64,000 bases of DNA from NCBI GenBank assembly GCA_937943575.1, contig CALEAV010000001.1, positions 20,375-84,374 on the forward strand, given 5' to 3'. Numbering within the stretch: position 1 is the first letter of the stretch; each line of letters opens with the position of its first letter. Positions 17,052 through 51,992 of this stretch are shown in pieces. Source of the DNA: an uncultured bacterium. GTDB taxonomy: Bacteria > Desulfobacterota > Desulfobaccia > Desulfobaccales > 0-14-0-80-60-11. A program made the position numbers and the translations under genes. The notes beneath the pieces were generated by a model, which worked only from the letters and a program-made list of their open reading frames with translations, ran no database searches and had not been told where the DNA came from.

Positions 17052-18710
<1,659 letters not shown>

Positions 18711-35770: not shown

Positions 35771-35846
35771 GGGGATGTAGCTCAGCTGGAAGAGCGCCTG
35801 CTTCGCATGCAGGAGGTCAGGGGTTCAAATCCCCTCATCTCCACCA
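35771..35846 (+). tRNA. tRNA-Ala (anticodon CGC)
   Basis: GGGGATGTAGCTCAGCTGGAAGAGCGCCTGCTTCGCATGCAGGAGGTCAGGGGTTCAAATCCCCTCATCTCCACCA. The cloverleaf folds by hand: acceptor GGGGATG/CATCTCC including the G3:U70 Ala identity pair, anticodon loop TTCGCAT, T-loop TTCAAAT. CCA is encoded. Confidence 0.9.
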
Positions 35847-35866
35847 CCCCCGTCAAAAGCCAGGAA

Positions 35867-35897
35867 GGCCGCCCGTTGCATGGTCGCGGCTTTTTTT
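35867..35897 (+). terminator. rho-independent terminator after tRNA-Ala
   Basis: Stem GGCCGC (35867-35872) pairs with GCGGCT (35886-35891), followed by a T7 run at 35891-35897. Confidence 0.6.
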
Positions 35898-37087
35898 GCG
35901 CCCGGGCTGATGGAGGGTCGGGTCCGGCATCTGGGACCCGCCCTTCCGGCACACTTTCCTCAGCCTTTCCCCAGGCCCGGCGTCTGCCAGGGGCTCAGGA
36001 CCGAGCACCCGGGGCGCCGCCCATCCCCTCATTCCCCCCGGACGGGCGGCCTGCTGCCGGGAGGGGGGTGCCCGTTTCCTCGCCCCAGCCCACGCGCCGC
36101 CCCCATCCCCTTCCAGGAAGCCGGCCCGGCGCTGAATCCAATGACCGAAATTGCCCAAAAGCGGCCCGGGCAACCTGAGTTCAAAAATCGGCAGGAGGTG
36201 CAGGAGCGGAAAACGGTGGCGCTCTTAACAAGGACACCGGCAACCGGCAGGGGCGGGCCGCAAAAAGCCGACGAACTCAGCCCCTGGCCGGCCGGGGCCA
36301 AGCAGCTCGCCCCAGACTATATGACGCCTCACCAAAATGCGCTATACTCTCTTCCGTGAGTTGACCCATGGAAAAGGGCTGAGAGTGCGGCGCGTGGTGA
36401 CGCCAGGCAGGAAGAAACCTTGACTATGTGGTCCGGGGCGGGCACTTCCGGGCCACGGCAGGCACGAAGGGCCCGGGTCATTCCGGCCTCGGCCCGGGGT
36501 CCGGTTTTGCCGGTAGTGGTTCGCCTAGGCGGCCCAAGCCGTCACCATTCCTCCCAGTGGCGCTTCCCCTTTCCGGCGGCGCGGCTGCCGGGCCTTCGGC
36601 CCCGTCCCCGGGCTGGCCGTGGCCGGGACCGGGATACACCTCAGGACGCCCCGGCTTCCCCCCACCATCCCCATCACCCCGACCTTCCCAAACCCCTGAA
36701 TGTCATCCCAGGGAACCTGACGGGGCCCAGAGGCCGGCAAGCCACCGCCTGGGGAGTCAAAGGCTGCCGGCTGACAATTTCTTTGGCGCCCACCCCCGCC
36801 TCCTGTCCCAGCCAGATGGAGATTCGCGCACCTGTCGTCATCACCAGCCGGGACAGAAGCCGCAGCGGCATCCGGCCTAGCAGATTCCGCCCTGCATTCC
36901 GGCAGGCACCGGGAGCCTCCCCGCCTCCTGAACCTCCCCTGTGCCGGCAAACCACTGGCTGCTTCGGCCATATTGTTTGCCAATCACAACACCGACCCGG
37001 ATGGCTGAAAAAAAAATTGTTTTCAGAAAATTGGATGCAAGACAGAAATAATTCAGAAGAGCAACTCTCTGGTTAAAGAGGAATAAT

Positions 37088-39010
37088 ATGTATTTTATCC
37101 GAGCGTTTATTTTTTTCACTATTTTGTTCTGTGGCCGGACGGGGATTGCCTGGGGTCTGACCCCGGGGCATAATTATGTGGTCATTCTCCTGGATGCCTC
37201 CGGCAGCATGAAGCAATCCGATCCTCAATTTTTGCGCCGCAAGGCCGCCAGGCTTCTCATCAGTCTGCTGCGCTCGGGGGATCGGGTGGTCCTGGCGGAA
37301 TTTGGCACAGGCGTCAGGGGGATCCCCCAGGGAGCCGTAACCCTGACCCCCGAGACCCAGGCAGATCTCTTTGCGGCCCTCGATAAACTCTCCTCTGCAG
37401 ATAAACACACCGACATCCTGGGCGCCTGCCACCATGCCCTTGAGCTGATCAGAGCGCTGCCTCCCGAGGCCCGCCAGTCCTTTGCCCCCCATGTCATCCT
37501 CCTGACGGACGGCAAGGATGATATGCCGGGGCAGGGTGATCGAAGTCCCCTCATCGAGGCAACAATTCACGAGCTGGCCGCTTTGGGAGTGAAGGTCCAC
37601 ACCGTGGGCTTTTCCGGCACGGCGGATATGAAAATCCTAAAGAAGGCCGCCACCCTGACCGGGGGGGACTTATGGGTGATTCATCAGGCCGGTGACCTGT
37701 TGCGGGGCTTTTTCGGGCTTTCCCGGGTCATGGGGAACCGCTGGCCTCTTCTGGAGCAGTCCATGGACCGGGGGACGGCCAGGATTGCCCTGCCTGCATG
37801 GTCCCGCCGAGTGGTGGTCTGCTACCTCCCCTCAGGCCCCACCTCCGAACGGGCACGAGCTTCCGCCCCCATAACCCGGGAAATCATCACCCCCGCCTAT
37901 CAGATCCTGACATTTGATGATCTTCCCTCAAATTCCCTGGAACTCGCCCTTCCCGCCCCCGGGACCCTTTTGGTGGATGCAGAGGAGACCCTGATCCTCC
38001 AGGCCCTGACGGGGAAGAAGGTCCCGAGGCGCCTGCCTTTCCCTTTTCAGGCCCACCTCACCCCGGCCCGGGGTGGTGAACTGGGCCGCCCCCTCTTTCT
38101 GGCCCACAGCGTCCTGACGCTGAGGCTGCGTCAGGACGGCCAGCCGGAGATGGTCCTGCCCCTTTATGATGACGGCCAGCATGAGGACGGCCGGGCGGGG
38201 GACGGCAGATTCGGCGGCTTTGTGCCGGGGATAGGGGAGGGCCGCTGGCACTTTCTCCTCACCGCCCGGACGCCCCACTGCCCGACCCTGTCGGCGTCGG
38301 GACAGGTGGAGGCCCTGGCGAGGCCCGTGTCCGTGGAAGCCCCGGGGCTATTTTCCCAGTTCATCCGGGCGCCTCTGACCGGGAGGCTCCACTGGAAAAT
38401 TCTCAATCTCACCGACATTGCTTTGACCGGGGAACTCGTCCTCGTATATGATAGCCGGGAGAAATTCTCCCAGACTGCAACCTGGAGGGGCGGTGAATCC
38501 CAAGATATTAGCCTCGTTTTGCCAGGTGAGATGAAGGCCGGTGCAGTCGGACGGGCGATTTTGCGGCTGTCTTGGCAGGGAGAACCGGTATGGGAAGGGG
38601 AATTCCGTGTCTGGCCCTGGTGGCTGCCGATTGTGGCCATCCTCGGTGTCCTTGGCCTGGGTGGTCTTACTTTCATCTTTCCCCGCCGTTCCCCTCAGGG
38701 CCTGCCCCTCACCGTCACGGTGGAGGAGCCTGGGCAGAATATCGTCCGGGTTCTGCGGGTGAAGCGCGACGGACGCGTGGAGGCCTCTGACCTGCCTCAC
38801 CCCTTCAATGAGCCGGGCACCTTCCGGGCCCGCTCCGGGATGTGGGGTCGTGGTATCCTCTATGAACCGGCGCCCTGGTGCCAGCCACATTTTCCTGGGA
38901 GGAGGCCTCCCCGCAAGGGGCGTGGTTTTCTCCTGCACGGCCCGACCACTTGGAGGTGTGCTTCGGGAGACATCCAGGCAGAATACAGGTTGAGTCCCCG
39001 TAGTTCATAA
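37088..39010 (+). CDS. exported von Willebrand factor A (vWA/MIDAS) protein with a single C-proximal TM anchor and a roughly 110-aa cytoplasmic tail
   Basis: AGAGGA lies before ATG 37088. Signal-like N-terminus MYFIRAFIFFTILFCGRTGIAWG. vWA beta1-MIDAS VVILLDASGSM (DASGS at 37193-37207), then VILLTDGKDD and VKVHTVGFSG. TM WPWWLPIVAILGVLGLGGLTFIF at about 38612-38683. Confidence 0.85.
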   Translation: MYFIRAFIFFTILFCGRTGIAWGLTPGHNYVVILLDASGSMKQSDPQFLRRKAARLLISLLRSGDRVVLAEFGTGVRGIPQGAVTLTPETQADLFAALDKLSSADKHTDILGACHHALELIRALPPEARQSFAPHVILLTDGKDDMPGQGDRSPLIEATIHELAALGVKVHTVGFSGTADMKILKKAATLTGGDLWVIHQAGDLLRGFFGLSRVMGNRWPLLEQSMDRGTARIALPAWSRRVVVCYLPSGPTSERARASAPITREIITPAYQILTFDDLPSNSLELALPAPGTLLVDAEETLILQALTGKKVPRRLPFPFQAHLTPARGGELGRPLFLAHSVLTLRLRQDGQPEMVLPLYDDGQHEDGRAGDGRFGGFVPGIGEGRWHFLLTARTPHCPTLSASGQVEALARPVSVEAPGLFSQFIRAPLTGRLHWKILNLTDIALTGELVLVYDSREKFSQTATWRGGESQDISLVLPGEMKAGAVGRAILRLSWQGEPVWEGEFRVWPWWLPIVAILGVLGLGGLTFIFPRRSPQGLPLTVTVEEPGQNIVRVLRVKRDGRVEASDLPHPFNEPGTFRARSGMWGRGILYEPAPWCQPHFPGRRPPRKGRGFLLHGPTTWRCASGDIQAEYRLSPRSS

Positions 39011-39037
39011 TCCTGGATTTTCAGGAGGGCAGTCCCC

Positions 39038-41821
39038 ATGAAGGAGTATTTAACCACACCCACCTTTGTCATCGGTTTGGGGGGTATCGGTCAGAAAGTC
39101 ACCTTCCTTCTGGCGGAGCGGTTTGAGAATTCCCGCTGGCGGGTGGTCCCCCCCACCATCCGCATCCGGTCCTTCGACACCGCGATGATGGAATCCTATA
39201 AGCGTGATGACGTTGAGATTCCGGTGTCCAAATTTCGGCGTTTCACCCGCCTGGGCCAATTCGATGGAGACCAGGTCATTCAGCACCTGCATGTCTATCC
39301 GGAAATCCAGGATTGGTGGGATTATCAATACACCATCGGCTTTATAGGGGAAGGGGCGAAGTCAGAACGTCCCGTGGGGCGCCTGGTGTTTTTCCGCAAC
39401 CTCGATCAAATCCATCAGGTGCTGCTGGATGATTTCAAAGCGCCCTTGGCCGATGATCTCCAGACGCAATTGATTAAGGTAGGGTTGGGACAGGTGAGTC
39501 GTCACCCCCTCGTCTATATCGTCGGGTCCCTGGCCGGGGGGACCTGCTCCGGCATGCTGATAGACATGGCCATTCTGGTGCGCTGGCTGCTCGTCAAGTT
39601 GGGGTATGAAAGCGGCAGCATCAACATCACCGCTCTGCTGGGTCTGGAGTCAGTGATCAACGTGGCGACGCAAAGTGGCAACGACCAGATTGCCAGACGG
39701 CGTCGTCTCAATGTGAACGCCGCCTTGCGGGAAATCGACTTTCTCCAGGGAGGACAGGAAAATTTCACCATAAATTATCCCCAGCCCCTCTCGCGCATTG
39801 AGCCGGTCCGTCCCCTATTCAATCAAGTTTATTTATTTACCTCCCGCAGAATGGGGGGATTTTTTTACCAAAATCAGTGGGACATCCTCAGTCGGGTCGC
39901 CCACTTCATCTTTGGCCAGATCGCCTCCAAAACCGGGCAGGAGGCGCGGGCCATCATGGATAATGTGGGGAGCTATTTCAATCCCAATGAAAGTACCGTC
40001 AGCGGCGGCCTCAAGGCCATCTATGCCTCCTTTGGGGTGGAGTGGCTGGAAGTTCCCAAAAAAAATCTCCTGGCAGCCTGGTGCCAGAAGCATGCCGATC
40101 TGTTGGGGAACCTGGCAGTGGAAATCGACTGGACGAGGGAACCCAAGGAAAACCTCCTGCGCAAATTTAAGGAACTCATTCCTCCCAAGCTGCATGGCTA
40201 TCGCCAGTCGCTGGCGATCTTGGAATCAGGCCCCCAGGGGATCTTGGCCGCTCCAGGGATGGGTGCTCTGGCCCCCAAACTGGAGGCCATTCAGGGAGCG
40301 CAGAACAAAACGCAGCTGATGGCTGCCCTCCACGATTTTGAGAGTGAGCTGCCCCCGCTGCTGACAAAAATCCTCCGGCGAGAAGTGGCCCTGGCCGGGG
40401 ACCCCTCCTTTGAGGATGCCTGGCTGCTGGAGGCCATACAAACCCTCTGCCGGGATCGAGGCTTCCGCCTGGGGGGAGCCAGAAGGGTTCTGCAAGAAGC
40501 GGCCCGCTACATCCGAAGCCTGACCAGTGTGTCCGAGCTGTCCCTCTCTTCTGTGAAAGAAGTCGTCAGACAATCTACAGGCTTTTTTGGAAGAGTGAGA
40601 GACCCCGGGCCGGCGTTGGAATGGGCCAAGGCCAAGACATTCCAGACCGCCAGACAGATTCTCCGCAATGAGATGGGGCTACGTTTTGATGCCCTGGCCA
40701 CCAAGATGGAGGAATGCGCCAACGGCCTGCAGCGCCTGCAGGAGAAGATCCGGGACCTCACCCGGCACATGCGCACCTTGCAAGCAACCGGGGATACCAT
40801 CCCCCCGGAAACCTACCTTCTGAACCCCAACGATATGCAAACCATGCTGGATGAGGCTCCGGAGGAAGTGGCCCGGCTGGGGGCCGATGAGATCGCCGAG
40901 CGGGTGGCCGGGGAGCTCACTTTGACCTTGTTGAGAGCCCAGGACACGGGGTTTTTGGAGAATAATCTCCGCTACTGGATAGAATCCGCCCTGGAAAAGG
41001 CCATCGAAACCCGAATACAACCGCCCAGAGACAGAGTGAAGCGCATTTGTCACCGCATGACCCAATGTGAGCCTATGTGCTATTTTATCGATAGAGGCCC
41101 TGAATTTAACGAAATCATGAGAAATCATCATCCTACAGATCTCAAGATTGTCCTCACCGGTGGGGACAATCAGGATCAGGATGACTTGAGAAAATGGGCC
41201 TTAGAGGAAAATCAAAAAGGGAAAGGAAATACCTACCAGATATTTGCCAATGACGAATTTCTGCGGGATGATATTTTGTATATTACCTGCGGCTGGCCTT
41301 TATGGCTGGTGGATGAGGTGCGTTCGGGGGAAACTCTGCTGGAGCAGACGAAGAAAGATGATATTAAGCGTTACCATAATTCCTTTATTTTGGGGAGGCA
41401 GATTCCGGCCAGCCGGGAGCACCAGATCAGGCCCCTGGAGGAGAGCGACGCCCAGACGTGGTTCGGCATTGCGCTGGCCCTGCGGGATATTGACTTCGGG
41501 GTGGGGGAAATCCATTTTAAGCCAGCGCCTTTCCCGGGCCTGATTCCCATTGAGGCGCCGGCTCTGGGGGACTGCCTGGAAAAAGCCTACCAGCTTTTTC
41601 GTCAGCAGGGCTTGGCCCATGCCTACAAAACCTATGTTCGCCGCGAACTGGAGAGGGACAGGGGTCTCTTCAAAAGCCGCTTAGAGGAGGGGCTGGCCCA
41701 CCGGGAGGCAGCCCTGCTGGGAGCCTTCGAGGGCGGCCAGATAACCGCCGATGAGAAGAAGAGACTGTCCACCTTTTATCGCCTTGCCCGGGAATATGCC
41801 AGGAGGATTGTGATCCTATGA
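39038..41821 (+). CDS. giant tubulin/FtsZ-superfamily GTPase-like protein (Tubulin_2 / FtsZl1-like), 927 aa
   Basis: AGGAGG lies 9 nt before ATG 39038. T1-like FVIGLGGIGQKV (39074-39097), T3-like IGEGAKSERPVGR (39347-39382), T4 / tubulin-signature-like VGSLAGGTCSGM (39533-39553), all in the canonical order. The long helical C-terminal two-thirds has no motif I recognise. Confidence 0.7.
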   Translation: MKEYLTTPTFVIGLGGIGQKVTFLLAERFENSRWRVVPPTIRIRSFDTAMMESYKRDDVEIPVSKFRRFTRLGQFDGDQVIQHLHVYPEIQDWWDYQYTIGFIGEGAKSERPVGRLVFFRNLDQIHQVLLDDFKAPLADDLQTQLIKVGLGQVSRHPLVYIVGSLAGGTCSGMLIDMAILVRWLLVKLGYESGSINITALLGLESVINVATQSGNDQIARRRRLNVNAALREIDFLQGGQENFTINYPQPLSRIEPVRPLFNQVYLFTSRRMGGFFYQNQWDILSRVAHFIFGQIASKTGQEARAIMDNVGSYFNPNESTVSGGLKAIYASFGVEWLEVPKKNLLAAWCQKHADLLGNLAVEIDWTREPKENLLRKFKELIPPKLHGYRQSLAILESGPQGILAAPGMGALAPKLEAIQGAQNKTQLMAALHDFESELPPLLTKILRREVALAGDPSFEDAWLLEAIQTLCRDRGFRLGGARRVLQEAARYIRSLTSVSELSLSSVKEVVRQSTGFFGRVRDPGPALEWAKAKTFQTARQILRNEMGLRFDALATKMEECANGLQRLQEKIRDLTRHMRTLQATGDTIPPETYLLNPNDMQTMLDEAPEEVARLGADEIAERVAGELTLTLLRAQDTGFLENNLRYWIESALEKAIETRIQPPRDRVKRICHRMTQCEPMCYFIDRGPEFNEIMRNHHPTDLKIVLTGGDNQDQDDLRKWALEENQKGKGNTYQIFANDEFLRDDILYITCGWPLWLVDEVRSGETLLEQTKKDDIKRYHNSFILGRQIPASREHQIRPLEESDAQTWFGIALALRDIDFGVGEIHFKPAPFPGLIPIEAPALGDCLEKAYQLFRQQGLAHAYKTYVRRELERDRGLFKSRLEEGLAHREAALLGAFEGGQITADEKKRLSTFYRLAREYARRIVIL

Positions 41822-43335
41822 ACCTCAGGGTTCTACCGGGAATTGTCTGGGCCCTCGATGAACCGGCATATAATTATGTGAAGAATTGGTTGGTCACCCT
41901 GCCCCCAAATGCCAGTGGGGTCTTTGCCGCGGCCTCCAGCTGGAACGAGTTCATTGAGATCATTGACCATTATCGGAAACAGGAGTTCGATGAAACGCTG
42001 CTTCAGGCCGGTCTCAGTCTGGAGCCCCAACTGCAGGGGCGGCGGGTCAATGTAGTGGTAGTGGGCTCCCTCCCCGCTGAGGGCCGGACTGCCTGGGCCG
42101 AGGCAGAAGAAAAATTGCATTCCCTGAGCGGGGTTATCTCCCTGGAGCATTACCGGGTGCTCCTGCATCCTACCCTGCCCCCTATCGGGGCCGCTTCGGT
42201 GCAGAGAGATGTGGTTTTTTCCGGTCTTGACACCCTGCGGGTGCTCCCCTGGCTCCTCACCCGGGTGGTCAGCGGGGGCTTCACCTTGGGGGAGGGGGAA
42301 TTTTCCCACCACTTCTCCCAGCTTCTGGACGTCTTGTTGTTGGCGGAAAGAGACGGGGGAAGGGCCCCGGGATATCTAGTGCACTCTTTCTTTCAGTCCC
42401 AACCCCAGCCTCGTCATGTCCGGTTGGCGGGGTTTCCCCGGCTTTCTCTGGGGCACCTGCTCACAGAGATGGCAGCCTTTTTGGCTCAGGCCATGTTGCA
42501 GCGTGCCTATCAGCGGCCCTATGAGGAGACCCGGCCTGCCATTCAGGCATTGGAAAAGCAGCTGGCAGGGCTGGTGGGGGAGTTTCTGAGAGGGGAGCGA
42601 ACCGCCACGCAGGTGGAGGATCACTTTTTCAGGTTGCGTGCGTTTCCAAATCTGTCGACCTCGGCGATCTTGCGTGAGGTTCCGGAAATCCTGCACCGGC
42701 AGACCCTCCGCCTCCGCCAGGACGCAATCATGATTGCTCCACCCGACTCATGGTGGACCAGACTGTGGCGAAGAATTCTGGCCTTTTTCGGCCGGAATCA
42801 GCCTGCGGACAGGGACCTGCCGGACCGGGTCCAGAGGGATTACCTGGTCAAGAGGTTTACCCGCACCATTGAAGTGATCAAGGAAGTAACCTCGGAGGTG
42901 CAAGCGGAGCCCAACACAGTCTCCCTACCCGATGATTTCATCAAGGATTGGGCAGATGAGATAAATGTTTTCGTCCGACGGGGCCTCCAAGAAGGGTGGG
43001 GACGAAGTGAGCTCAAAAACCACTTGAAAATAAAGATGGAGCGCTACCTCCAGGAGAATTTTTTCCATGCCCTTCTCCACTGGGATCTTAAGGATGAGCG
43101 CGTGCGGGAGGTGGCCAGGGCGTTGGACGAGGGAAACCTCCTGCGCTTCAGTGCCCCTTTGATCGGGGGGCTCACGGTCTCCCCGCAGGCCGTGGTCACC
43201 TCCCTCAATTTGGGGGAGCAGATCCCTTATCAGACACACAAAGTTCCCTGCGCCACCTTGTCCTTTTACCCGGGCTGGCGGCCATTGTTGGTGGGTGCCA
43301 GCGAAGCTGTCCCCTTGGAACACATCAGTTTATAA
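41818..43335 (+). CDS. hypothetical protein, translationally coupled; possibly a nucleotide-loop-degenerate paralogue of the tubulin-like protein
   Basis: ATGA overlap with the upstream stop. IVWALDEPAYNYV and RRVNVVVVGSLPAEGRTAW align by eye with the FVIGLGGIGQKVT and LVYIVGSLAGGTCSGM loops of the upstream protein, but the glycines are lost. No P-loop. Confidence 0.6.
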   Translation: MNLRVLPGIVWALDEPAYNYVKNWLVTLPPNASGVFAAASSWNEFIEIIDHYRKQEFDETLLQAGLSLEPQLQGRRVNVVVVGSLPAEGRTAWAEAEEKLHSLSGVISLEHYRVLLHPTLPPIGAASVQRDVVFSGLDTLRVLPWLLTRVVSGGFTLGEGEFSHHFSQLLDVLLLAERDGGRAPGYLVHSFFQSQPQPRHVRLAGFPRLSLGHLLTEMAAFLAQAMLQRAYQRPYEETRPAIQALEKQLAGLVGEFLRGERTATQVEDHFFRLRAFPNLSTSAILREVPEILHRQTLRLRQDAIMIAPPDSWWTRLWRRILAFFGRNQPADRDLPDRVQRDYLVKRFTRTIEVIKEVTSEVQAEPNTVSLPDDFIKDWADEINVFVRRGLQEGWGRSELKNHLKIKMERYLQENFFHALLHWDLKDERVREVARALDEGNLLRFSAPLIGGLTVSPQAVVTSLNLGEQIPYQTHKVPCATLSFYPGWRPLLVGASEAVPLEHISL

Positions 43336-43354
43336 AGCCCGGAGGCCTCTGTTC

Positions 43355-45169
43355 ATGCTCCCCGTTGACATCGGCATATCAGATAAAAATATTTATGTTT
43401 TCGTCATTATTATATTGGCGGTTTTCATTTTATTTATATACAATACAATAGAAATTCGGCATTTATTGAAACAGAGAAAAATATGGGAAAGACTAGGTCC
43501 AAATGCAGGCGAACTTACTCTGGATCACATTCACGGGATTCCGGAACCCAGTAATTTTGTTCTGGGCAGTATTTTGACGGACAGCCCGGGCAAAGCAAAA
43601 GTGCAGGGCATTCCGGCCGCCCTGGACCATTTGGGGGCGGCACTGGACGCGCCTTTGCGTGCCCTTCGCTCCCTGAGCTATCTATCCGTCCTCTTCGGTT
43701 TATTGGGAACAGTGCTGGTTTTGGCTATAACATTTTGGGGAGTCCAGGATATCCGTCATATTAATCCCGGTCTGCTTGGCCATATATATTTAGTCAATTC
43801 GGTGGCCGTCTTTCTTGCATTATGCTTTTATGGATTATATACCCATTACCGCCGTTCAGCTGACCGACTCCTCCTTGCCGCCTCCCGGACCCTGGGGCGG
43901 CTGCAGTCGGAAGTGCCTGAAGGGGTCGATCCCCAGCTGGTGGCGGCCCTGGAAGGCGTGGGCAGCAAGTTCAGCCAATGGGGGGAGGACATCTACGCCA
44001 GGCATAGACAGGAGTCCGAAAGACTGGTCCAGGAAATGCAGGGATTGGGGGAGGCCATCCGGCAGATGGTCCAAAGCATGGTAGCCGCCCAGAGGACCGA
44101 AATGGAGGGCATCATCCCGTTGCTCAGGAGTCAGGATGAAAAAATAGAGTTGCTGAGCCTACGGCTGGATGAACGGTTTCAGGACCTGGCCAGACCCTTA
44201 CTGCAGGCTCTGCCCATCCTGGAGTCCTGGCGCCAACGCACCGAGGAGCTGAAGCAGGCAGTGGAGGACATGCGCCGGGCCGACCTGGAGGGCAAAACCG
44301 CCGCCCTGGCTCAGGCCGCCTCGGCTCTGGGCACCGCCTCCTCCGAGTTGCCCCAAGCGGCCCGGGAGGAGTTCCGGGGCGCCAGAAAGGAGCTTGCCGC
44401 CGGTCTCGGCCAGGCCTTGCGCCAAGGCCTGAATGACTTCCTGGTGCCGACCCTTCAAGCCCTCCATGCCCGGTTGGCCGAACTGGAAAAGCTACAGCAG
44501 GCCCTGGGGGAAGCAGTAAACGATCTGCCCTCCAAGGCGGCCATGAGCCTGGCCGAGACCACCAGGACCGTCTGGCAGGAAACCATGCAGCCGGGGCTCG
44601 CTTTTCTGGCCGAGTCCTTGAGCACCCTCAGGGAATTCCAGCAGGCCCTCCGCCACATTCTGGACCAACTGCCCCAGTCCGTCGGCCAGGGGGTGGCCGC
44701 CGGCTGCCAGCCGCTTTTGCAGATGAATGGCGAATTGGCCTCTCAGCTGAGGGGATTCGTTGAAAGGACGACCCCGTTAACCCAGCTTCCCGATATCTTG
44801 GCGGAGAGCGTCCAGGAAAGCCTGCGCGGGGCAGCCACAAGCCTCTCATCGGCAGTATCCCGGGCCCTTCGCCAGGAATGGCAGCAGGTTTGGGCGCCGG
44901 AGGCGGAAATCACCCATTTCCTGCGGTCCCTGCTGGAGGAACAGCAGAACCAGGTGAAGGAACTGGACAGACTGACCGGCCGGCTGGTCTCCTTCATGGA
45001 AAATCAGGTCAACGGCATAGGGGAGAGAGTGGCACAGAGTCTGCGGACCCTCTGGGCGGAAACGGGCGACGGATACCTGCGGGATATTCTGGGATCCCTC
45101 AAGGGTCTGGAAAAGGCGATGGCAAACACCCGGGGCCCCGCGGATGGCAGCTCTGGGTGGTACTGGTAA
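43355..45169 (+). CDS. MotA/ExbB/TolQ-like three-TM channel protein with a roughly 400-aa C-terminal helical (coiled-coil-like) tail (ZorA-like architecture)
   Basis: GGAGG lies 9 nt before ATG 43355. TM1 is about 43391-43450, followed by a roughly 75-aa loop. TM2 LSYLSVLFGLLGTVLVLAITFW has GLLGTV at 43697-43714 (MotA_ExbB hallmark), then a short loop and TM3 IYLVNSVAVFLALCFYGLYTHY. The A/L/E/Q/R-rich tail runs to the stop. Confidence 0.6.
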   Translation: MLPVDIGISDKNIYVFVIIILAVFILFIYNTIEIRHLLKQRKIWERLGPNAGELTLDHIHGIPEPSNFVLGSILTDSPGKAKVQGIPAALDHLGAALDAPLRALRSLSYLSVLFGLLGTVLVLAITFWGVQDIRHINPGLLGHIYLVNSVAVFLALCFYGLYTHYRRSADRLLLAASRTLGRLQSEVPEGVDPQLVAALEGVGSKFSQWGEDIYARHRQESERLVQEMQGLGEAIRQMVQSMVAAQRTEMEGIIPLLRSQDEKIELLSLRLDERFQDLARPLLQALPILESWRQRTEELKQAVEDMRRADLEGKTAALAQAASALGTASSELPQAAREEFRGARKELAAGLGQALRQGLNDFLVPTLQALHARLAELEKLQQALGEAVNDLPSKAAMSLAETTRTVWQETMQPGLAFLAESLSTLREFQQALRHILDQLPQSVGQGVAAGCQPLLQMNGELASQLRGFVERTTPLTQLPDILAESVQESLRGAATSLSSAVSRALRQEWQQVWAPEAEITHFLRSLLEEQQNQVKELDRLTGRLVSFMENQVNGIGERVAQSLRTLWAETGDGYLRDILGSLKGLEKAMANTRGPADGSSGWYW

Positions 45170-45180
45170 AGAAATAAAAG

Positions 45181-45939
45181 ATGCGGTGGCGCAGAAGAGA
45201 TGAAGGAGAGAATCCGGCCTGGCCGGGTCTGGTGGATCTGTTTGCCTTCACCCTGGTTTTCGTTTTGCTTCTGTGGTTTGGCAGCGATCTGAAGGGCGAA
45301 AAAGAAAAAATAAACGAAAAAATAAAGAAATTAGAAGAAGATAACTCGCACCTCAAAGTGGAAAAAGATCAATTGGAAAAGGAATTCGGCAAACTCAAAG
45401 ATATCATCGGAGGGAAAGGATTAAAGGAACTTAAAAATATTTATGAAATCATTAAAGTCAAACTGCCAATGGATTATAGAATAGTGATGGATGAGGAGGC
45501 CATCGAGATCCAGATAAAAGGTGACCCCCCCATTTATTTCAAAACCGGGGATTACCAGTTAAGCAAACAGGACCAGGAGCGTTTAAGATCCCTGGCCCCC
45601 ATCATCCTGGACACAGTTCAGGGGAAGCCGCTTTATGTTCTCATCAATGGGACGGCGGACCCCAGATTTCTGCCGGACCGGGGTTTCCCTCCCCACAACA
45701 ATGTTGAACTGTCCGCCCTGCGTTCGGCCACCGTGGCCGACACCCTGGAAAAGGCCGCCCTTGGGCTGGGCAAATATCTGCGGATTGTGGGCTTGGGGGT
45801 TATCGGGGAAGAAGCCCCTCCGGGGGTGGACCCGGAGCCGCATTACCAGCAGTATCGCACCATCAACCTGGTCATCAAAGTGGATGTGGAAAAATTGCGC
45901 TTTCTGCCGGCTCTGGAATTAAAACAGCCAGGTCATTGA
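45181..45939 (+). CDS. MotB/ZorB-like protein: N-terminal TM with conserved Asp, coiled-coil linker, OmpA-like peptidoglycan-binding domain
   Basis: WPGLVDLFAFTLVFVLLLWF (Asp codon 45235-45237) resembles the MotB/TolR/ExbD plug-TM. A K/E-rich linker follows. OmpA_C-like YFKTGDYQLS...VLINGTADP...NNVELSALRSATVADTL...IVGLGVIGEE...YRTINLVI at about 45525-45885. Confidence 0.75.
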   Translation: MRWRRRDEGENPAWPGLVDLFAFTLVFVLLLWFGSDLKGEKEKINEKIKKLEEDNSHLKVEKDQLEKEFGKLKDIIGGKGLKELKNIYEIIKVKLPMDYRIVMDEEAIEIQIKGDPPIYFKTGDYQLSKQDQERLRSLAPIILDTVQGKPLYVLINGTADPRFLPDRGFPPHNNVELSALRSATVADTLEKAALGLGKYLRIVGLGVIGEEAPPGVDPEPHYQQYRTINLVIKVDVEKLRFLPALELKQPGH

Positions 45940-46763
45940 TGAGAAGCCTGGTCAAAAGCCTCCAGACCTCCGTTCTGCGCCTCAAGGAATGGTGGTCCAG
46001 TCTGGCTTCGGGGGGGAGATTGTTCCCAGACCGGCGGACCTTGCACAGGGATTCTCGGGAGTGGCAGGAGCGGGTGAGGGAGTTGGTCAACAGCCGGCAA
46101 GCCCTGGAGGACAGATTGGCCGAGGCCAGTATGGCGGCTCGGGCAGCCGGGGTGCCGCAGCCGGAAGAGGTTGGCCTCCTGAAGCAGGCGAAACATGAAA
46201 TTCAAAAATCCTATGACCGGACCCTCATCCAAAAGTACCAGGCGATCAGTCAGGCCTTCGCTATCCTCAGTCCGGGAAAAAAAGGGAGCCCTCCGGAGTC
46301 ACTTCAAAATCTGATAAAGGAATATACTTTCCGCATTCAACAAATAATACAGGATTACGAAATAATCAGCAACAGGCTTCAGCTTGTCATTAACCTTCTC
46401 CATCAATCTCTGCAGCAAAAGCCTTGGGCAACTGCATTATCACACCGGTTGCTCTTGGGTCATCCTGAAATATATCAGGAGTTGCTAAAGATAGAGGAAT
46501 TACGATGGGAAAATAGGCAAATCGCTGTAAAGAGAATGCAAAACAGCTTCCAAAGGCGACTGCATATCGGAAAAATGTGGTTAAATATCTTGGAAAACCA
46601 TATAAGTAGTTATGCTTACCGCCTAGGAATGAGGACCATAAAAGAATTAAGCACAAGTTTCTCAGAACATGAAGATAAGCTAAATTATCTTATAAATCTT
46701 CACAGACGCTTGGATACTCCCCTTCTGAATTGGAACAGACAGTCGCTTCAACGGCTAAATTAA
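45939..46763 (+). CDS. hypothetical alpha-helical protein (last gene of the operon)
   Basis: ATG 45939 overlaps the upstream TGA (TGATG). 274 aa with no TM or recognisable motif. The 3' half is AT-rich (26/60 G+C at 46441-46500). Confidence 0.6.
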   Translation: MRSLVKSLQTSVLRLKEWWSSLASGGRLFPDRRTLHRDSREWQERVRELVNSRQALEDRLAEASMAARAAGVPQPEEVGLLKQAKHEIQKSYDRTLIQKYQAISQAFAILSPGKKGSPPESLQNLIKEYTFRIQQIIQDYEIISNRLQLVINLLHQSLQQKPWATALSHRLLLGHPEIYQELLKIEELRWENRQIAVKRMQNSFQRRLHIGKMWLNILENHISSYAYRLGMRTIKELSTSFSEHEDKLNYLINLHRRLDTPLLNWNRQSLQRLN

Positions 46764-47092
46764 GGGCACCGCACCCCTTATCCTCCCCCAGCAATTGATC
46801 CCCATCCTCGGGGGGGGACCTGCATCCGCGTCAGGCAGCGAGCCGGCCCTGGCCTTGGAGCACCGCCCCTGAGCCGAACTGCCGCCGAACCAGCCGGCCA
46901 CGCCGGGAAAAATCTGTTCCCACTGTCCCGGGGGCTTTCGCCGCTTTTCCCGATTCAGGTTGAAGTCGTCGGTGGTATCAGTGACGTTGAGGAGCTCAAT
47001 ATCACCAATGCTACTATGTTGCACGACTGCCACAAAAGCAACTTGGCATGACTTCTGTTGATTTGCCTCTACGCACGTCGAATCCGGGGGCC

Positions 47093-47117
47093 GCAGGTTC
47101 GAATCCTGCCAGGCGCC
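47093..47117 (+). other. orphan tRNA-like 3' fragment (T-arm plus acceptor 3' strand)
   Basis: GCAGG-TTCGAAT-CCTGC is followed by CAGGCGCC. No complementary 5' acceptor (GCGCCTG) lies within 100 nt upstream, so it is not a complete tRNA. It differs from the tRNA-Ala 3' end. Confidence 0.4.
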
Positions 47118-48791
47118 GAGGATTTCAACCGGTTGCCCACCGGGCCCCTACACCGCAAAAATCGGGGGTCAGCATTGTGCAGGGCCACCGCAGGCCCCCC
47201 GGGGCAGCCTGAAATGAGCCTCACCTGAACCTCAGCGTGCCGGGCCGTCTTCTGCAAGCCCCCAGGGTCTCCCCACCCCCTGGGCGCTCCGTGGGAGGAG
47301 CCCGGAAGCGACAAAGATGGCGGGACGCGTTTGCCAGCCCTCCCGCCGTCGCCTCTCAGCTTCACAGACCCGGCCTCACCCCCGCCGACACCCCCAAAAG
47401 CCACAGACTTACGGAGGGCTGCATCTCCCCCCACCGCCCTTCCGTAACCCGGCCGCAGCGGCGTCTCCCCGGATTCCCCCGTCACCCCCGACTGGACCAG
47501 CTGCGGGGGCGGAATTTCTGCCTATTCCTTTGTCGAAAGATTCCAGTTTCTCTGATTTTTTCCCTGTTTCCTTTCGTCCGGCATCGGTTCTCCCTAAGGC
47601 TCGCAGCCCACGTCCGCCTTCCTTCCCCGGGGAAGCCCACGCGGGAACGTGTTGAAAAACCCAGGATATTTTATTCCAGCCGCGCCATCAGATTGCGTGG
47701 GCCATGATTCATCGCCGGATCGAGGGCCTCATTCCAAAGGATGCAGCCTTCCGGGTGGCTGCCCTAAGACCCCTGGGGAAGAGCCTGTTAAGCCACGGAT
47801 GGAGCCACGCCCCCGCTGTGTCCCCCTTCCCGGCCAAAGCGCCCCCGTTCTTTCCAGAGGTGCCATGGCTTCTTCCGGCATGCCCCCCCGTCGATCCCCC
47901 TCACCTTGGCTCCCCCTTTTCAGCACGCCACCGGTGCCCCAAGGGGGGCCGGGAGCCTCAGGTCATTTCGCCCCGCCAGGAGAGACTGAAAGGCGGGGAG
48001 ACAGGACCCTTATGACAGGACGGGAGACTGCTGCCATGGGTTCCCTGCCGATTGCTCTCCTCAAGAGATCGGCCGGATCTTTTCGGAACATTTTTCAATT
48101 TTTTCCCGGAAGCGATTCTTCTGTTTTTGTAGTTAACTGTTGTCATTTAATGAATCAGGCTGAAGGGAAATTCGACCGCAATCTCTTTAAAGTGAATGGC
48201 AGTTTATCACGGACTGTTTCCATCCCGGGTCAATTTATCCTGCGGCCGGCCTGGGCCATTCTTCCCGGGGCCTTCCCATCGCCGACCTGATCACGGTTTG
48301 GGCTGCGGCGGTCTGACCCCGGCCGCCGGAAAAGGCGCCTCCTCTCCCTCTGAGTCCTCCGGCCCGGCGGGGTGCCCAAAGAATTCGGGAGCGTCAGGAG
48401 ACGACGTGGAGAAGGTCTGCCGGCATTTGCTCTCCAAATTGACCGCCCCGAAAGGGTGCCGGCGGGGGGCGGCATGTCGCCCCCGGATGCTCCTGCATGA
48501 AGGGGGCACAGGAGCCGCGGCGCCCCACCCTCCCCGGGGATCATCAAGGTGGGAAATATTGCGTACTCAAAAATGGTAATTTTTGCCTATATACAAGCTG
48601 CCCCACATATCTCATGTTTAAGCTAAAGCTGCCATGACCGGGGGGACCGGCAGCCGGCGGCAGATGAGGAGGCTGGACCCTGCGGCCGCCTCGTCGGATG
48701 AGCGTTACGAGCCTGGGCCCTGAGGATCATCCGGGCCAGCCACCCCGGGGCGGAGCTTTCAGGCGTCCGGTCCGGAGACAAGGAGGACCCC

Positions 48792-50207
48792 ATGAAGCGT
48801 CTGAAGCGACGGGAGTTCGTGAAGTACAGCCTGGGGGGGCTGGTAGGGGTGGCGGTGGGCTCCCGTCTGCCCCTGTCCCCCCTGTTTCAGAGCCAGGCCC
48901 AGGCCCAGAGCAACGTCATCAGCCTCGCCATGGTGGTGGACAGCGTGGAGATGGTGGACACCCTCCCGGTCCCCCACTGGCTTTACGCCCTGGACGGGGT
49001 GCCCAGCCTTCCGGGGCCGGCCATCTTTGCCCTGGCCACTGAGACCTTCACCATCGCGGTGACCAACCATATCAATGACGGCCGCACCCGGCGCTTCGCC
49101 ATCGTGGGGAACTCAGGCGGCAACCCCTATGCCCTCATCAAGCAGTCGCAAAACATCACTTTCGGGCAGACGCAATGGGTGACCATCAATGCCGGGGAGC
49201 TGGCCCCGGGGACGTATCTTTATAAAGATCCCACCCAGGACCCGGTGAGCCGGGTGCTGGGGCTGCATGGGATGCTGGTCATCCTCCCCTCCCTGACGGC
49301 CACCAACCCCTACGGCAGCTTCTCCACCTCCCGGGTGACGGCCCTCTTCAACGCCCTGGGCGTGGGCACCCCCTATGATCCGGAAGCCGTCTTTCCGGGC
49401 CAGCCCTGGTTTGCCACCACCGACGCCAATCCGGCCTACGATCCGGAAAACGGCACCGACTCGGACTTTGAGCACCATGAGGTCTTCGTGGTCAATCCCA
49501 CCGGGCCCCAGTCCCCGGTCTTTGAGCGCTTTCTCTACCGCACCCGCCTGTGGGTGCACCATTCCATCGACCCGGAGCTCAACCGGGCGGTCATCACCCA
49601 GGGCGTCAGCCCGGACCCGCAAACGGTGCGCAGCAATTTCCGTCCCCAGTATTTCAGCCTCAACGGCCGCCAGGGGGGCTTTGCGGCCCACTCCCCGGAC
49701 GTCACCATCGTGGGCACGGTGGGGGAGCCCCACCTCATCCGCCAGGTGAACGCCGGGCTGGCCACCCACTCCCCCCATCTGCATGCCAACCACTTCTACG
49801 TCACCGCGGTGAACAACCAGGTGGGGAGCCGGGGGGTCTATATGGGACTGCCGGAGGGCCAGGATAATCTGGTCTTTCTGGACACCATGACCATGGGGCC
49901 CGAGGACCGGGTGGACTGGCTGGTGCCCATGCTTCGGCCGCCGGACATCCCCCGGGTGCTCACCGACGGCTCCATCCACCGGCCGGGAGAACCCGTGCCG
50001 CCCGGGGCCCGTCTTCTGCCCCTGGGTCAGCTCCTGCCGGAGGAGCTCAACCTGGTGCTCCTGGTGCCCCAGAATCCTTTGACCTGGCCCATGCACAGCC
50101 ACATGGAGATAGACCAGACCGCCGCCGGGGGGAACTACCCCCAAGGCGCGGTGACCCAGATCGAATTCATCGGTGAGTTCGGACAACTGTTTTTCAGCAC
50201 CGGCTGA
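48792..50207 (+). CDS. Tat-exported multicopper-oxidase-like cupredoxin protein carrying only the L3/L4-type His motifs
   Basis: AAGGAGGA precedes the ATG. Twin-arginine signal MKRLKRREFVKYSLGGLVGVAVG. HSPHLHANHF (49767-49784; compare HPxHLHGHxF) and WPMHSHMEID (HSH at 50094-50102; compare HCH). The N-domain equivalents of HWHG/WYHSH are degenerate (TNHINDG, GTYLYKDP). Confidence 0.75.
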   Translation: MKRLKRREFVKYSLGGLVGVAVGSRLPLSPLFQSQAQAQSNVISLAMVVDSVEMVDTLPVPHWLYALDGVPSLPGPAIFALATETFTIAVTNHINDGRTRRFAIVGNSGGNPYALIKQSQNITFGQTQWVTINAGELAPGTYLYKDPTQDPVSRVLGLHGMLVILPSLTATNPYGSFSTSRVTALFNALGVGTPYDPEAVFPGQPWFATTDANPAYDPENGTDSDFEHHEVFVVNPTGPQSPVFERFLYRTRLWVHHSIDPELNRAVITQGVSPDPQTVRSNFRPQYFSLNGRQGGFAAHSPDVTIVGTVGEPHLIRQVNAGLATHSPHLHANHFYVTAVNNQVGSRGVYMGLPEGQDNLVFLDTMTMGPEDRVDWLVPMLRPPDIPRVLTDGSIHRPGEPVPPGARLLPLGQLLPEELNLVLLVPQNPLTWPMHSHMEIDQTAAGGNYPQGAVTQIEFIGEFGQLFFSTG

Positions 50208-50257
50208 GCGGGTTCCCGGGGGAGGTCCCCGGGCTCAGCGGCTAAGGAGATCCGACC

Positions 50258-51778
50258 ATGGCATCGTCACAGCGCTTCGGCACCGCCCGGGACACCTTTT
50301 TCACCGGCATGCCGGAAAATCTTCTGAAGCATGTCTGCCCGCCCACCTTCGGCGGCGGGCCCCTGGACCCGGTCCCTGCAGACCGGGAACTGCGCCGGGA
50401 CCTGCTGGTGAGCCACGATCTGGACCTGCCCCCGGCGGTGGCCGCCAGGCTGGGGAGGGACAAACTGCGGATGTGGATCATCGAAAACGATGATCCGGAC
50501 GCCCCGGGGTCGGCACCCCGGAGGACCTACCCCTCCCCCCTCATCCGTCTGGTCCGGGGGCAGGTGGTGCACGCCCGGGTGGGAGGCAAGTCGGGCACCC
50601 ACACCGTCCACTGGCACGGGATTGAGCCCGTGCCCACCAGCGACGGGGTGGGCAAGCACTCCTTTGAGATCTCCGGCAATTTCACCTATCAGTTCCAGGC
50701 CAATGAGGCCGGCACCTATTTTTATCACTGCCACAAAAATACCACCCTGCACTTCCAGATGGGGCTGTGGGGCGGGCTCATTGTGGATCCCCCCAACCCC
50801 AATATCGCCGGGGACAACAACCTGGGGCTGACCTTCACCGCCCTGACGCCGCCCTACGCCACCCTGGGACCGGGGTATGCCGCCGGGCTGCGCAGTTCCT
50901 TCGGGCTTTCCCCCGGGAACGCCATCCCCTACCACCGGGAGCGCCTCTGGGCGGTGGATTCCCTGGATTCCCGCTGGCACCTGGCCAACCCCAACCACAA
51001 CCTCAACATGCAGGAGTGCCGCCCGGACGATCCGGCCGGGGCGGAGACCTTTTACCGCATCGGCACCGGGGACTTCGATCTCAATGACTTCCGGCCGGAT
51101 GTCTTCACGGTGAGCGGGGTGGTCCTGAACGCCGGCTCCGGACCGCCCTTCACCGGGGTCATTGACCACCCGGACATTGCCATCAGTGCCACTGCCGGGG
51201 AGCTGGTGCTGCTGCGCTATATCAACGCCAGCTACACCATCCAGGAGCTCAGGCTGCCGGTGCCGGCCAGGGTCATCGCCTGGGACGGCCATCCCCTGGG
51301 ACTGCCCGGCTATCACGAATTCGGCAGCCCCTATGTGGTGCCGGCTAACACCCCCATCCGCACCACCAGCGCCCGGCGCCCGGATCTCATTATTGATACC
51401 CGGGGGATGTCTGCCTTTCAGGGGGTGGCCACCCTGCGCCTGTATGACTGGATCAAGGGGGTGACCTCGGCGGGGCTTCTGGCCGAGATCCAGATCCCCA
51501 TCAGCATCGCCGGCGGCCCGGGACCCCAGCCGGCGCCCTTCACGGTCAGCGCCTCGTTCAATCGCCGCAACCGGAGACTGAATGTGGCGACCAATCCGGC
51601 CCAGCCCGCTGCCACCCTGCGGGTCTTTGCGGCGGACCACAGCCGGATCGGCGGCGACTTCCTCCTGGACCGGCGGGGCCGGTTCAGCGGCCGCCTGCCG
51701 GGGACGGCCATTCCCGCCTATGTGCGGGTCATCACGGGCCAGGGGGACTTCGGTCCCTTCCCGGTGGCGGTCAGATAG
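50258..51778 (+). CDS. multicopper-oxidase-like protein carrying only L1/L2-type motifs, no visible signal peptide
   Basis: HTVHWHG (50600-50620) and GTYFYHCHKNTTLHFQMGLWGGLIV (HCH..H..M at 50726-50761). There are no C-terminal HxxHxH/HCH motifs. The N-terminus MASSQRFGTARDTFFTGMPENLLKH lacks a hydrophobic core. Confidence 0.8.
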   Translation: MASSQRFGTARDTFFTGMPENLLKHVCPPTFGGGPLDPVPADRELRRDLLVSHDLDLPPAVAARLGRDKLRMWIIENDDPDAPGSAPRRTYPSPLIRLVRGQVVHARVGGKSGTHTVHWHGIEPVPTSDGVGKHSFEISGNFTYQFQANEAGTYFYHCHKNTTLHFQMGLWGGLIVDPPNPNIAGDNNLGLTFTALTPPYATLGPGYAAGLRSSFGLSPGNAIPYHRERLWAVDSLDSRWHLANPNHNLNMQECRPDDPAGAETFYRIGTGDFDLNDFRPDVFTVSGVVLNAGSGPPFTGVIDHPDIAISATAGELVLLRYINASYTIQELRLPVPARVIAWDGHPLGLPGYHEFGSPYVVPANTPIRTTSARRPDLIIDTRGMSAFQGVATLRLYDWIKGVTSAGLLAEIQIPISIAGGPGPQPAPFTVSASFNRRNRRLNVATNPAQPAATLRVFAADHSRIGGDFLLDRRGRFSGRLPGTAIPAYVRVITGQGDFGPFPVAVR

Positions 51779-51992
51779 GGGCACAGGGGGAAGTCAGGGC
51801 GAACGCCGCCTCTGCCCCGGGGGGCGCCTGAGCCCGTGCCTGAAAGGAGAGGGGGCCAAGGGGCCATATCCTCCCAGCCCCCTCCCAGGGCGGCTGAAAC
51901 GGGTGCCAGACGGCGCCGGGAGGAGACCGGGGGTGCTCCTCCCCCGGCGACCATGCAATAAACAGCAGCCCCCTTTTTGAGATCCACAATCC

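Follow-up and report, generated by a model that had tools for sequence, protein, structure and literature searches.

In a 64,000-nucleotide stretch of contig CALEAV010000001.1 from an uncultured bacterium (the window, in whose numbering all coordinates are given), six co-directional genes, spaced closely or overlapping, occupy positions 37088-46763. In order, they encode a von Willebrand factor A (vWA) protein (g1), a tubulin-like GTPase of the Tubulin_2 family (g2), a soluble protein (g3), two membrane proteins that we call A and B, and a second soluble protein (g6). We propose, with a probability of about 0.65, that A and B form an ion-driven complex of the MotAB/ExbBD/ZorAB type in the inner membrane, with a cytoplasmic part that acts on other proteins of the cassette. 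The original prediction for this DNA, made from the sequence alone, had cast the pair as a peptidoglycan-anchored, ion-driven motor. The predicted fold of A and the motifs of B support that reading, which we grade as likely.

Protein B is a MotB-type partner by sequence

B (252 aa; 45181..45939, plus strand) begins with the basic stretch MRWRRRD, which is followed by a single hydrophobic span at about residues 12-38. We place the transmembrane (TM) helix at residues 14-34 (45220..45282, plus strand). This helix carries Asp19, encoded by GAT at 45235-45237, so the basic N-terminus and the single TM span with its Asp codon are as originally described. The residue had also been likened to the ion-binding Asp of known motors. 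Consistent with this, Asp19 is invariant in 34/34 diverse homologues, and the spacing from Asp19 to a Trp (+13) is that of D32-W45 in E. coli MotB. N11, W14, P15, G16, F21 and F23 are also invariant in the 34 homologues.

The TM helix leads into a periplasmic coiled-coil linker rich in K and E (residues 36-78; 45286..45414, plus strand). This linker had been predicted together with the AT-richness of its DNA, and both hold: the a/d positions of a true heptad repeat are 69% hydrophobic, and the DNA at 45290-45480 is only 31% G+C. Weak DivIC/FtsB-type matches also fall on the linker. Because the heptad pattern is clean, a dimeric periplasmic stalk fits B.

The C-terminal part of B is an OmpA-like, putative peptidoglycan-binding domain (residues ~100-240; 45478..45900, plus strand) with the motif NGTAD160PR...NNxELSALR181A. 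Its elements G157-x-A159-D160-P161-R162 and N174-x-x-L177-S-A-L-R181 are invariant across the 34 homologues and align with GHTDxR...NWxLSxxRA of MotS and PomB with an equal insertion length. The family profile of B matches MotS (8e-10), PomB (7e-9) and MotB (2e-6) in the PDB, and hhalign pairs B with E. coli MotB at 96.8% probability (E 3e-10). These matches and the invariant motif uphold the OmpA-like domain of the original prediction. The Pfam OmpA model (PF00691) does not reach its cutoff on the window's B (20.1 bits vs 27.2), and many of the homologues, which number about 150, carry precomputed PF00691 matches. The PADLOC ZorB1 model matches residues 6-190 (8.7e-7) and the NCBIfam ZorB1 model gives just 21.8 bits against a cutoff of 400; MotB-type models score B as well as or better than ZorB models. 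Judged by these comparisons, B is a MotB-type partner with a TM Asp and an intact, putative peptidoglycan-binding motif, and it is nearer to MotB/PomB than to ZorB in sequence.

Protein A is likely a divergent channel subunit of the 5:2-motor superfamily

A (604 aa; 43355..45169, plus strand) starts at the ATG at 43355, with GGAGG 8 nucleotides upstream. A GTG at 43295 was considered as an alternative start and rejected; it overlaps the upstream gene, and homologues give it no support. Hydropathy places hydrophobic spans at about residues 4-38, 104-133 and 138-162, separated by a TM1-TM2 loop of about 65-75 residues, with TM2 and TM3 close together. This agrees with the topology first proposed for A (TM1, a loop of about 75 residues, then closely spaced TM2 and TM3). 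TM1 coincides with helix 1 of the AlphaFold2 (AF2) model (residues 10-38; 43382..43468, plus strand). Because four K/R residues come right after TM1, the loop that follows is probably cytoplasmic. The charge distribution of A obeys the positive-inside rule in the topology of ExbB, with the N-terminus outside and both the large TM1-TM2 loop and the tail inside.

The AF2 model of residues 1-215 has a mean predicted local distance difference test score (pLDDT) of 78.9 and a predicted template-modelling score (pTM) of 0.68. When this model was compared to the PDB with Foldseek, ranks 1-46 were all ExbB, TolQ, MotA or PomA, at probabilities of ~0.9-1.0 and TM-scores of 0.45-0.56 over 200-230 columns. 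With the full-length model, all of the top 50 matches were A subunits of 5:2 stators. The ZorA structure 8qyh_A stood at rank 8 (probability 0.99, TMt 0.51), and 8qyd_A and 8qyy_A were also present. TM-scores across both models, which are predicted structures, ranged from 0.45 to 0.58. These data point to an ExbB/TolQ/MotA/ZorA-fold channel subunit that carries a long helical tail.

Motifs in the TM helices agree with this fold. TM2 (residues 104-127; 43664..43735, plus strand) contains SVLFGLLGTV. Its FGLLGTV portion had already been picked out in the original prediction and is present at residues 114-120, although its first nucleotide is 43694 and not 43697 (43694-43714). hhalign sets LSVLFGLLGT119V of A in register with ISPFVGLFGT148V of ExbB and GLFGT145V of TolQ, with residue numbers checked on the E. 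coli genes; the codon of Thr119 is at 43709-43711. TM3 (residues 138-162; 43766..43840, plus strand) carries HIYxxN, in which Asn148 is encoded at 43796-43798. Comparisons of A with single ExbB, TolQ and MotA sequences were used for motif register only. The match to E. coli MotA is non-significant and sets Asn148 opposite MotA Thr209. Across 41 family representatives, Leu116 and Asn148 are kept in 41/41, position 119 is Thr in 39 and Ser in 2, and Tyr145 of TM3 is Tyr in 36/41 and Phe in 5/41.

This conservation bears on whether the complex conducts ions at all. A and B could instead be a static anchor that tethers a tubulin-like polymer to the membrane and the wall, with neither ion flow nor movement. 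Such an anchor would suit an A protein that falls below the MotA_ExbB threshold and has a TM3 motif unlike that of ExbB/TolQ, and a B protein with no recognisable MotB plug. It does not suit the retention of Asp19 of B and of Asn148 and Thr119 of A at the frequencies given above, nor a Thr that lines up with the functional Thr residues of ExbB and TolQ. A role in conduction is favoured because buried acidic and polar TM residues that are kept family-wide are hard to explain otherwise, and we consider a static anchor unlikely.

After TM3 comes a conserved cytoplasmic core (residues 163-285; 43841..44209, plus strand), which includes EGIIPLLRSQDEKIELLSQRLD and is kept in the short A proteins described below. 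The core is the best-conserved block of the family alignment, with column identity of 0.7-0.87, and Glu265, Arg270 and Asp272 are kept in 34-35 of the 41 representatives.

Several results weigh against placing A in the superfamily. The Foldseek E-values are modest (0.03-0.6), and the hhalign matches to single E. coli sequences are weak (ExbB E 0.008, TolQ E 0.047). The MotA_ExbB and ZorA profile matches that the original prediction would lead one to look for were not obtained: Pfam MotA_ExbB (PF01618) gave 12.8 bits (E 0.1) against a cutoff of 22.9, PADLOC ZorA models gave no match at E<=1, and NCBIfam ZorA_3 gave 11.2 bits (E 0.12) against a cutoff of 250, over the tail only. Among PDB sequences, a profile of the N-terminal 215 residues failed to recover ExbB, MotA or ZorA, and the full-length profile matched nothing beyond generic helical proteins (apolipoprotein, chemoreceptors). 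Searched against 1.84 billion representatives, the N-terminal profile collected ~48 family clusters and did not reach into MotA/ExbB/TolQ. TM3 lacks the APGIAEAL...AIPA motif of ExbB/TolQ. The tail is modelled at a pLDDT of only 35-60, too low for reading a tertiary structure; low values are to be expected when an oligomeric tail is modelled as a monomer. Many of the wider relatives of A match PADLOC ZorA models. These matches run tail to tail and possibly reflect composition, so kinship with ZorA by this route was set aside. On the supporting side, MotA_ExbB matches below threshold recur on the same segment in 12/15 close family members (best 0.004) and in 6/39 wider members (best 5.6e-5). 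The family is rare, with 18 matches among 5.8 billion clustered proteins. Because no Pfam, NCBIfam or PADLOC model exists for the A family, annotation and defence-finder pipelines miss it.

A bridge to known proteins comes from Deinococcus. Tubulin_2 corresponds to FtsZl1, a family for which Makarova and Koonin (2010) reported operons containing vWA and OmpA-like genes and suggested a role in membrane remodelling (PMC2875224). According to their Additional file 5, the gene directly after FtsZl1 in D. radiodurans (DR_0538-DR_0536) and on D. deserti plasmid 2 (Deide_2p00780-00800) encodes a 411-aa 'MotA/TolQ/ExbB membrane protein', with an OmpA protein next (PMC2875224). The text of that paper treats the OmpA proteins as beta-barrel/transport proteins and leaves a MotAB-type motor or the MotA-like neighbour undiscussed (PMC2875224). 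FtsZl1 beside MotA-like and OmpA genes was thus already tabulated in 2010, and a motor interpretation with a tailed A was not discussed there. Tubulin_2 proteins were still treated as uncharacterised in a 2023 review, and our literature search found no paper linking Zorya-type motors or MotA with tubulin-like proteins.

The 411-aa protein of D. deserti is built like A and is a distant relative of it, with a MotA_ExbB match below threshold and an apolipoprotein-like tail. It matches A around TM2 (hhalign 3.4e-5) and PADLOC ZorA1 across TM2-TM3 (1.6e-7), and its partner combines a strong OmpA domain with a TM Asp. This intermediate therefore links A to ZorA-like proteins and indicates that the association of a tubulin with a MotAB-like pair recurs. 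The Deinococcus operons share the same tubulin-like GTPase family with the cassette, whose vWA and OmpA partners fit the 2010 description. Unlike the cassette, the Deinococcus operon is without g3, g6 and vWA genes and carries LRV-repeat and kinase-like genes in their place. In the operon of D. deserti plasmid 2 (L009; labels L001-L025 denote contigs of relatives), a gene annotated as a beta-helix repeat protein lies at 14586-17201. Its N-terminal kinase-like region matches the defence models mad6 (1e-21), PD-T4-6 and MkoA, and a PD-(D/E)XK nuclease gene comes next.

Since the sequence-level statistics for A are all below threshold, its likeness to MotA/ExbB might be convergent or fortuitous, with A being a generic three-helix membrane protein joined to a coiled coil. 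However, two models of A each return about 50 top structural matches from one superfamily only, the adjacent and translationally close gene B is clearly MotB-type, and the Deinococcus intermediate provides a TM-region link between A and ZorA models. We regard a chance resemblance as very improbable. Instead, A is likely a divergent member of the channel-subunit superfamily of 5:2 motors, as judged by predicted fold and motif register and not by sequence significance. The case leans on predicted structure because the curated sequence thresholds were all missed.

The length of the A tail varies with the presence of tubulin genes

At nine or more loci we find the order vWA, Tubulin_2, g3, A, B and g6, with proteins whose identity drops to ~22-35%. 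Full cassettes are found in L007/L008, L011, L012, L016, L017 and L019/L020. The cassette of L018 is cut by the contig end, and that of L001 has no vWA gene. Four Thermodesulfobacteriota-type contigs carry a three-gene version, with a short A, B and a g6-like gene and without vWA, Tubulin_2 and g3 (L004 9012-11469; L010 5004-7817; L021 3211-5668; L025 606-3057).

A is 443-669 aa long where tubulin is encoded and 319-331 aa where it is not. The short A of L004 (324 aa, 9012-9986), for example, aligns only to residues 14-281 of the window's A. B in the tubulin-less triads is 303 aa, with a coiled-coil linker ~60 residues longer. Long-tailed A occurs with Tubulin_2 and g3 at 9 loci and short A without them at 4, with no exception. 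Because the tubulin-less triads hold just these three genes, the A core, B and g6 appear to be the basic module. Because the ~320-residue tail occurs exactly where the tubulin genes do, the tail probably works with Tubulin_2 and g3. This co-variation is correlative, and it is the main evidence suggesting that the tail cooperates with these two proteins. It also lends comparative support to the earlier idea that the tail signals to tubulin-like proteins. That idea had assumed several such proteins, and only g2 is one: g3, tried as a second tubulin, gave an hhalign probability of 1% against Tubulin_2.

The same comparison bears on the direction in which force would act. A and B could be an energiser of the Tol/Ton or Agl type that pushes force outward to the envelope rather than signalling inward, for instance by moving or unmasking a vWA adhesin on a cytoskeletal track. 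The best fold matches of A are ExbB and TolQ, B has a long periplasmic coiled coil, and the envelope-exposed vWA protein g1 has an intact metal-ion-dependent adhesion site (MIDAS) and a surface-anchor-type domain. The Myxococcus AglRQS-Glt gliding machinery, which combines a TolQR/MotAB-type motor with MreB and the vWA adhesin CglB, offers a parallel for this arrangement. The likeness (motor, cytoskeletal polymer and vWA envelope protein) is one of analogy only, and the cassette differs in that its polymer would be tubulin-like and not actin-like and in that no Glt-type trans-envelope proteins are encoded. It is the cytoplasmic tail of A, not a periplasmic part, that varies with the tubulin genes. 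Moreover, B ends in a peptidoglycan-binding domain and not in a TonB/TolA/GltG-like partner that reaches out, the L001 cassette does without a vWA gene, and no outer-membrane components are encoded. An outward energiser is therefore, in our estimate, improbable.

The A tail is predicted to be helical, without a heptad repeat

The last 414 residues of A (191-604) are 54% A/L/E/Q/R, and AF2 predicts the tail, at low confidence, to be all-helical with a few breaks. The tail of about 410 residues in the original prediction was thus right in composition and is also predicted to be helical rather than disordered. Its heptad-like character was not borne out. When hydropathy was averaged over the alignment, the tail exhibited a single dominant period of 3.65 residues, with phase held over 410 residues. 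The power at 3.65 was 204, whereas shuffled data peaked at 35 +/- 9, and the power at 3.5 was 3.3, which is background. A canonical left-handed heptad coiled coil is excluded for the tail because of this period and because there is no power at 3.5. The data fit a near-straight or right-handed bundle and fit 11-mer amphipathic lipid-binding helices equally well. The tail of ZorA has been described as a right-handed coil (PMC11946911).

The variable part of the tail (residues 286-604; 44210..45166, plus strand) ends GDGYLRDI...SSGWYW and is present only alongside Tubulin_2 and g3. Most A-family proteins, short forms included, end in an aromatic-basic motif after a low-complexity linker (for example GFFRRFFG, SWFKRIFRPKG and SFWDRVLRKS). 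A strict rule for this motif is satisfied by 19/51 family members and by 10/257 background proteins. These C-termini resemble the membrane-targeting helices of MinD and FtsA. The window's A ends ...SSGWYW, with TAA at 45167-45169, and the in-frame codons after the stop are AGA AAT AAA AGA (RNKR). This looks like a motif whose basic half was lost to the stop codon.

These features raise the possibility that the tail is no free rod in the cytoplasm but lies on the inner leaflet, or folds back onto it, as an array of apolipoprotein-like amphipathic helices tethered by its short aromatic-basic C-terminal helix, and that A, B and the tubulin form a membrane-shaping machine. The period of 3.65 comes near the 11/3 repeat seen in amphipathic helices that bind lipid, and the aromatic-basic C-termini occur in most family members. 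The family profile matches apolipoprotein A-IV (2.7e-6) and apolipophorin-III (6e-4), and also chemoreceptor helices. Pfam Apolipoprotein and ApoLp-III match 8/39 and 3/39 family members, respectively, and apolipoprotein matches extend to the Deinococcus protein. A membrane-shaping role would also agree with the remodelling hypothesis of 2010 (PMC2875224). However, a period of 3.6-3.67 also suits soluble helical bundles and the right-handed tail of ZorA (PMC11946911), the window's A lacks the basic half of the C-terminal motif, and any long amphipathic helix typically matches apolipoprotein models. We therefore treat a tail on the membrane surface as possible, though clearly less probable than our proposal of an A/B complex acting on the cassette proteins.

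The cassette is mobile and lies in a low-G+C island

The G+C content of the cassette is 0.39-0.65, compared to ~0.70 in its flanks, and a low-G+C island at 36800-46750 coincides exactly with the six genes. Two patches are sharply more AT-rich than the island average, at 45200-45499 (0.39, in the linker of B) and at 46400-46699 (0.38, in g6). A tRNA-Ala(CGC) gene (35771..35846, plus strand; ARAGORN, Rfam) lies 0.95 kb upstream of the island. We looked for an att-like direct repeat of this tRNA at the far end of the island, and for an integrase, and found neither. The flanks at 35847-37087 (~1.2 kb) and 46764-48791 (~2.0 kb) hold only long GC-biased open reading frames with no protein-family match; both may be non-coding DNA or the decayed remains of an element that delivered the cassette.

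Taken across the relatives, the cassette is rare and horizontally moving, with a patchy spread that crosses phyla and possibly domains. Among GTDB species representatives we found one locus only, on an 8-kb contig of a metagenome-assembled genome (MAG) labelled Hadarchaeum. IMG/VR viral contigs contained no relative of the cassette. Two copies, complete or partial but including the peptidoglycan-binding B, lie in MAGs labelled as archaea, which lack peptidoglycan, and this sits awkwardly with a wall-anchored complex. They belong to GCA_038893975.1 (L007/L008, labelled Methanomethylicaceae) and GCA_038851515.1 (L005/L015, labelled Hadarchaeum), with a G+C content of ~0.48. These archaeal-labelled copies could reflect mis-binning, very recent transfer or another ligand for the OmpA-like domain.

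Mobility of this kind invites the reading that the cassette is a Zorya-like anti-phage system, in which the motor senses envelope damage and the tubulin, g3, g6 and vWA proteins replace the ZorC/D/E effectors. Besides the ZorAB-like architecture, the low-G+C island beside a tRNA gene and the patchy, rare distribution are consistent with such a system. The L007 cassette is immediately preceded, at 773-3710, by genes for a HerA/mad8-like protein and a type II DNA methyltransferase (PADLOC 4.7e-64), and is followed by two transposase genes at 13775-14567. This is a mobile setting like that of a defence island, at a single locus. The kinase-like protein of the Deinococcus version, with its matches to defence models, adds to this side. 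However, no nuclease, helicase or other recognisable effector is encoded in the cassette, and B is the sole cassette protein with a PADLOC match. In both the window and L001, the cassette has copper-resistance and housekeeping genes as neighbours, and neither integrase nor att repeat was found; we count the absence from IMG/VR as neutral. A dedicated defence role is therefore doubtful on present evidence.

A Zorya-like architecture and a proposed mechanism

The core of Zorya, ZorA/ZorB, is a 5:2 motor with a 70-nm tail (PMC11946911). Our pair resembles it in several respects. A has the build of a three-TM channel subunit with a cytoplasmic helical tail of several hundred residues. B has a single TM span with an essential-type Asp and a peptidoglycan-binding domain at its C-terminus, and it shows no obvious MotB plug. 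The 3.65-residue period is compatible with the right-handed coil of ZorA, ZorA structures are among the fold matches, and the genes lie in a horizontally acquired island. In contrast, the window's A has no ZorA profile match and those of its relatives are tail-to-tail only, B has a leucine-zipper-like periplasmic linker, and the A family ends in an aromatic-basic motif. The partners also differ: in place of ZorC/D/E/F/G there are vWA, Tubulin_2 and two further proteins, g3 and g6. None of the six cassette proteins matches a PADLOC model for ZorC/D/E/F/G, and g1, g2, g3 and g6 match no PADLOC model at all. The cassette is thus Zorya-like in architecture and not a Zorya member, and ExbB/TolQ folds are at least as close to A as ZorA. 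The original prediction of a ZorAB-like layout, with a tailed channel subunit and a peptidoglycan-anchored partner, holds at the level of architecture, as does its statement that Zorya effectors are lacking.

Compared to ExbB-ExbD and TolQ-TolR, A has its best structural matches in this group (200-230 columns) and shares three TM helices, a large cytoplasmic TM1-TM2 loop and a GLxGT Thr in register with T148/T145. It differs in TM3, with HIYxxN where ExbB and TolQ have APGIAEAL...T...AIPA, and only A has a tail of ~415 residues. B is MotB-like with an OmpA-type domain and not ExbD/TolR-like, and no TonB/TolA gene is present. Compared to the flagellar stators MotAB, PomAB and MotPS, the peptidoglycan-binding domain of B is nearest to MotS, PomB and MotB, and its TM Asp and Asp-Trp spacing are as in MotB. 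However, A has three TM helices instead of four and no FliG-binding cytoplasmic domain, and flagellar genes are not adjacent.

If A and B form an ion-driven complex as we propose, five A subunits would be expected around two B subunits in the inner membrane of the host. The host is a diderm member of the Thermodesulfobacteriota with peptidoglycan, because it encodes a heptosyltransferase and a resistance-nodulation-division (RND) efflux pump and because of the kinship of its sigma-54 (22436-23935), which shares 91% identity with a copy in a Syntrophobacterales MAG and ~72% with the Desulfobacca protein. Protons or another ion would pass by way of Asp19 of B, between Thr119 and Asn148 of A. With B anchored to peptidoglycan, ion flow would turn or shift the A ring, and the A core together with the ~320-residue tail would hand this movement to cytoplasmic proteins of the cassette. 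The likely recipients would be the Tubulin_2 GTPase and g3, and the extracytoplasmic vWA protein g1 might give envelope-side input or attachment.

A more specific version of this mechanism is tentative: a proton-driven rotary 5:2 motor, coupled mechanically or allosterically through a pentameric A tail to a tubulin-superfamily polymer, encoded on a mobile cassette and triggered from the envelope by way of both the peptidoglycan anchor and a vWA sensor. Such a motor-plus-tubulin machine would serve defence or local remodelling of the membrane or cytoskeleton. The FtsZl1/Tubulin_2 branch, which has been without an assigned function since 2010, gains a testable mechanism from a ZorAB-like motor whose tail length tracks the tubulin. 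If the mechanism is right, the tailed 5:2 motor design of Zorya extends to a GTPase polymer as output in place of nucleases, and 5:2 motors may be general transducers from envelope to cytoplasm.

Other proteins of the cassette and neighbouring genes

The first gene of the cassette, g1 (640 aa; 37088..39010, plus strand), encodes a vWA membrane protein (Pfam VWA 8e-13, NCBIfam choice_anch_X 4e-9). The protein carries a signal or TM segment at residues 3-21 and an intact MIDAS (DASGS, residues 36-40). It also has a choice-of-anchor X domain and, after a TM span at residues 508-533, a cytoplasmic tail of ~107 residues. This layout predicts a type I membrane protein whose vWA domain is external. 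It is also the first gene of the cassettes in L007, L011, L012, L016, L017 and L019.

g2 (927 aa; 39038..41821, plus strand) is the tubulin-like GTPase of the FtsZl1 family. Tubulin_2 (PF13809) matches residues 11-351 at 7e-38, the GGTCSG signature is invariant in the family alignment, and a C-terminal extension of ~575 residues follows. g3 (505 aa; 41818..43335, plus strand) overlaps the stop of g2 by 4 nucleotides and always comes directly after the Tubulin_2 gene at the loci examined. g6 (274 aa; 45939..46763, plus strand) is a soluble helical protein whose start overlaps the stop of B (TGATG), and its homologues come after B at all loci, tubulin-less ones included. Neither g3, which is a conserved protein, nor g6 has a Pfam, NCBIfam, PADLOC or PDB match.

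A copper-resistance cluster lies just downstream of the cassette (48792-57540) and comprises two multicopper-oxidase-like proteins, an AcrB/CusA-family pump and a CusB-like adaptor. The adaptor carries three YHS domains and TRASH-like metal-binding repeats. A run of glycosyltransferase genes on the minus strand (9376-14429) encodes two large Glyco_trans_1_2/DUF3880 proteins, one of which has a Maf (motility-accessory-factor) N-terminal domain, and a family 9 heptosyltransferase. At 63241-64000 the window breaks off within a bacterial 16S rRNA gene (model positions 1-737).

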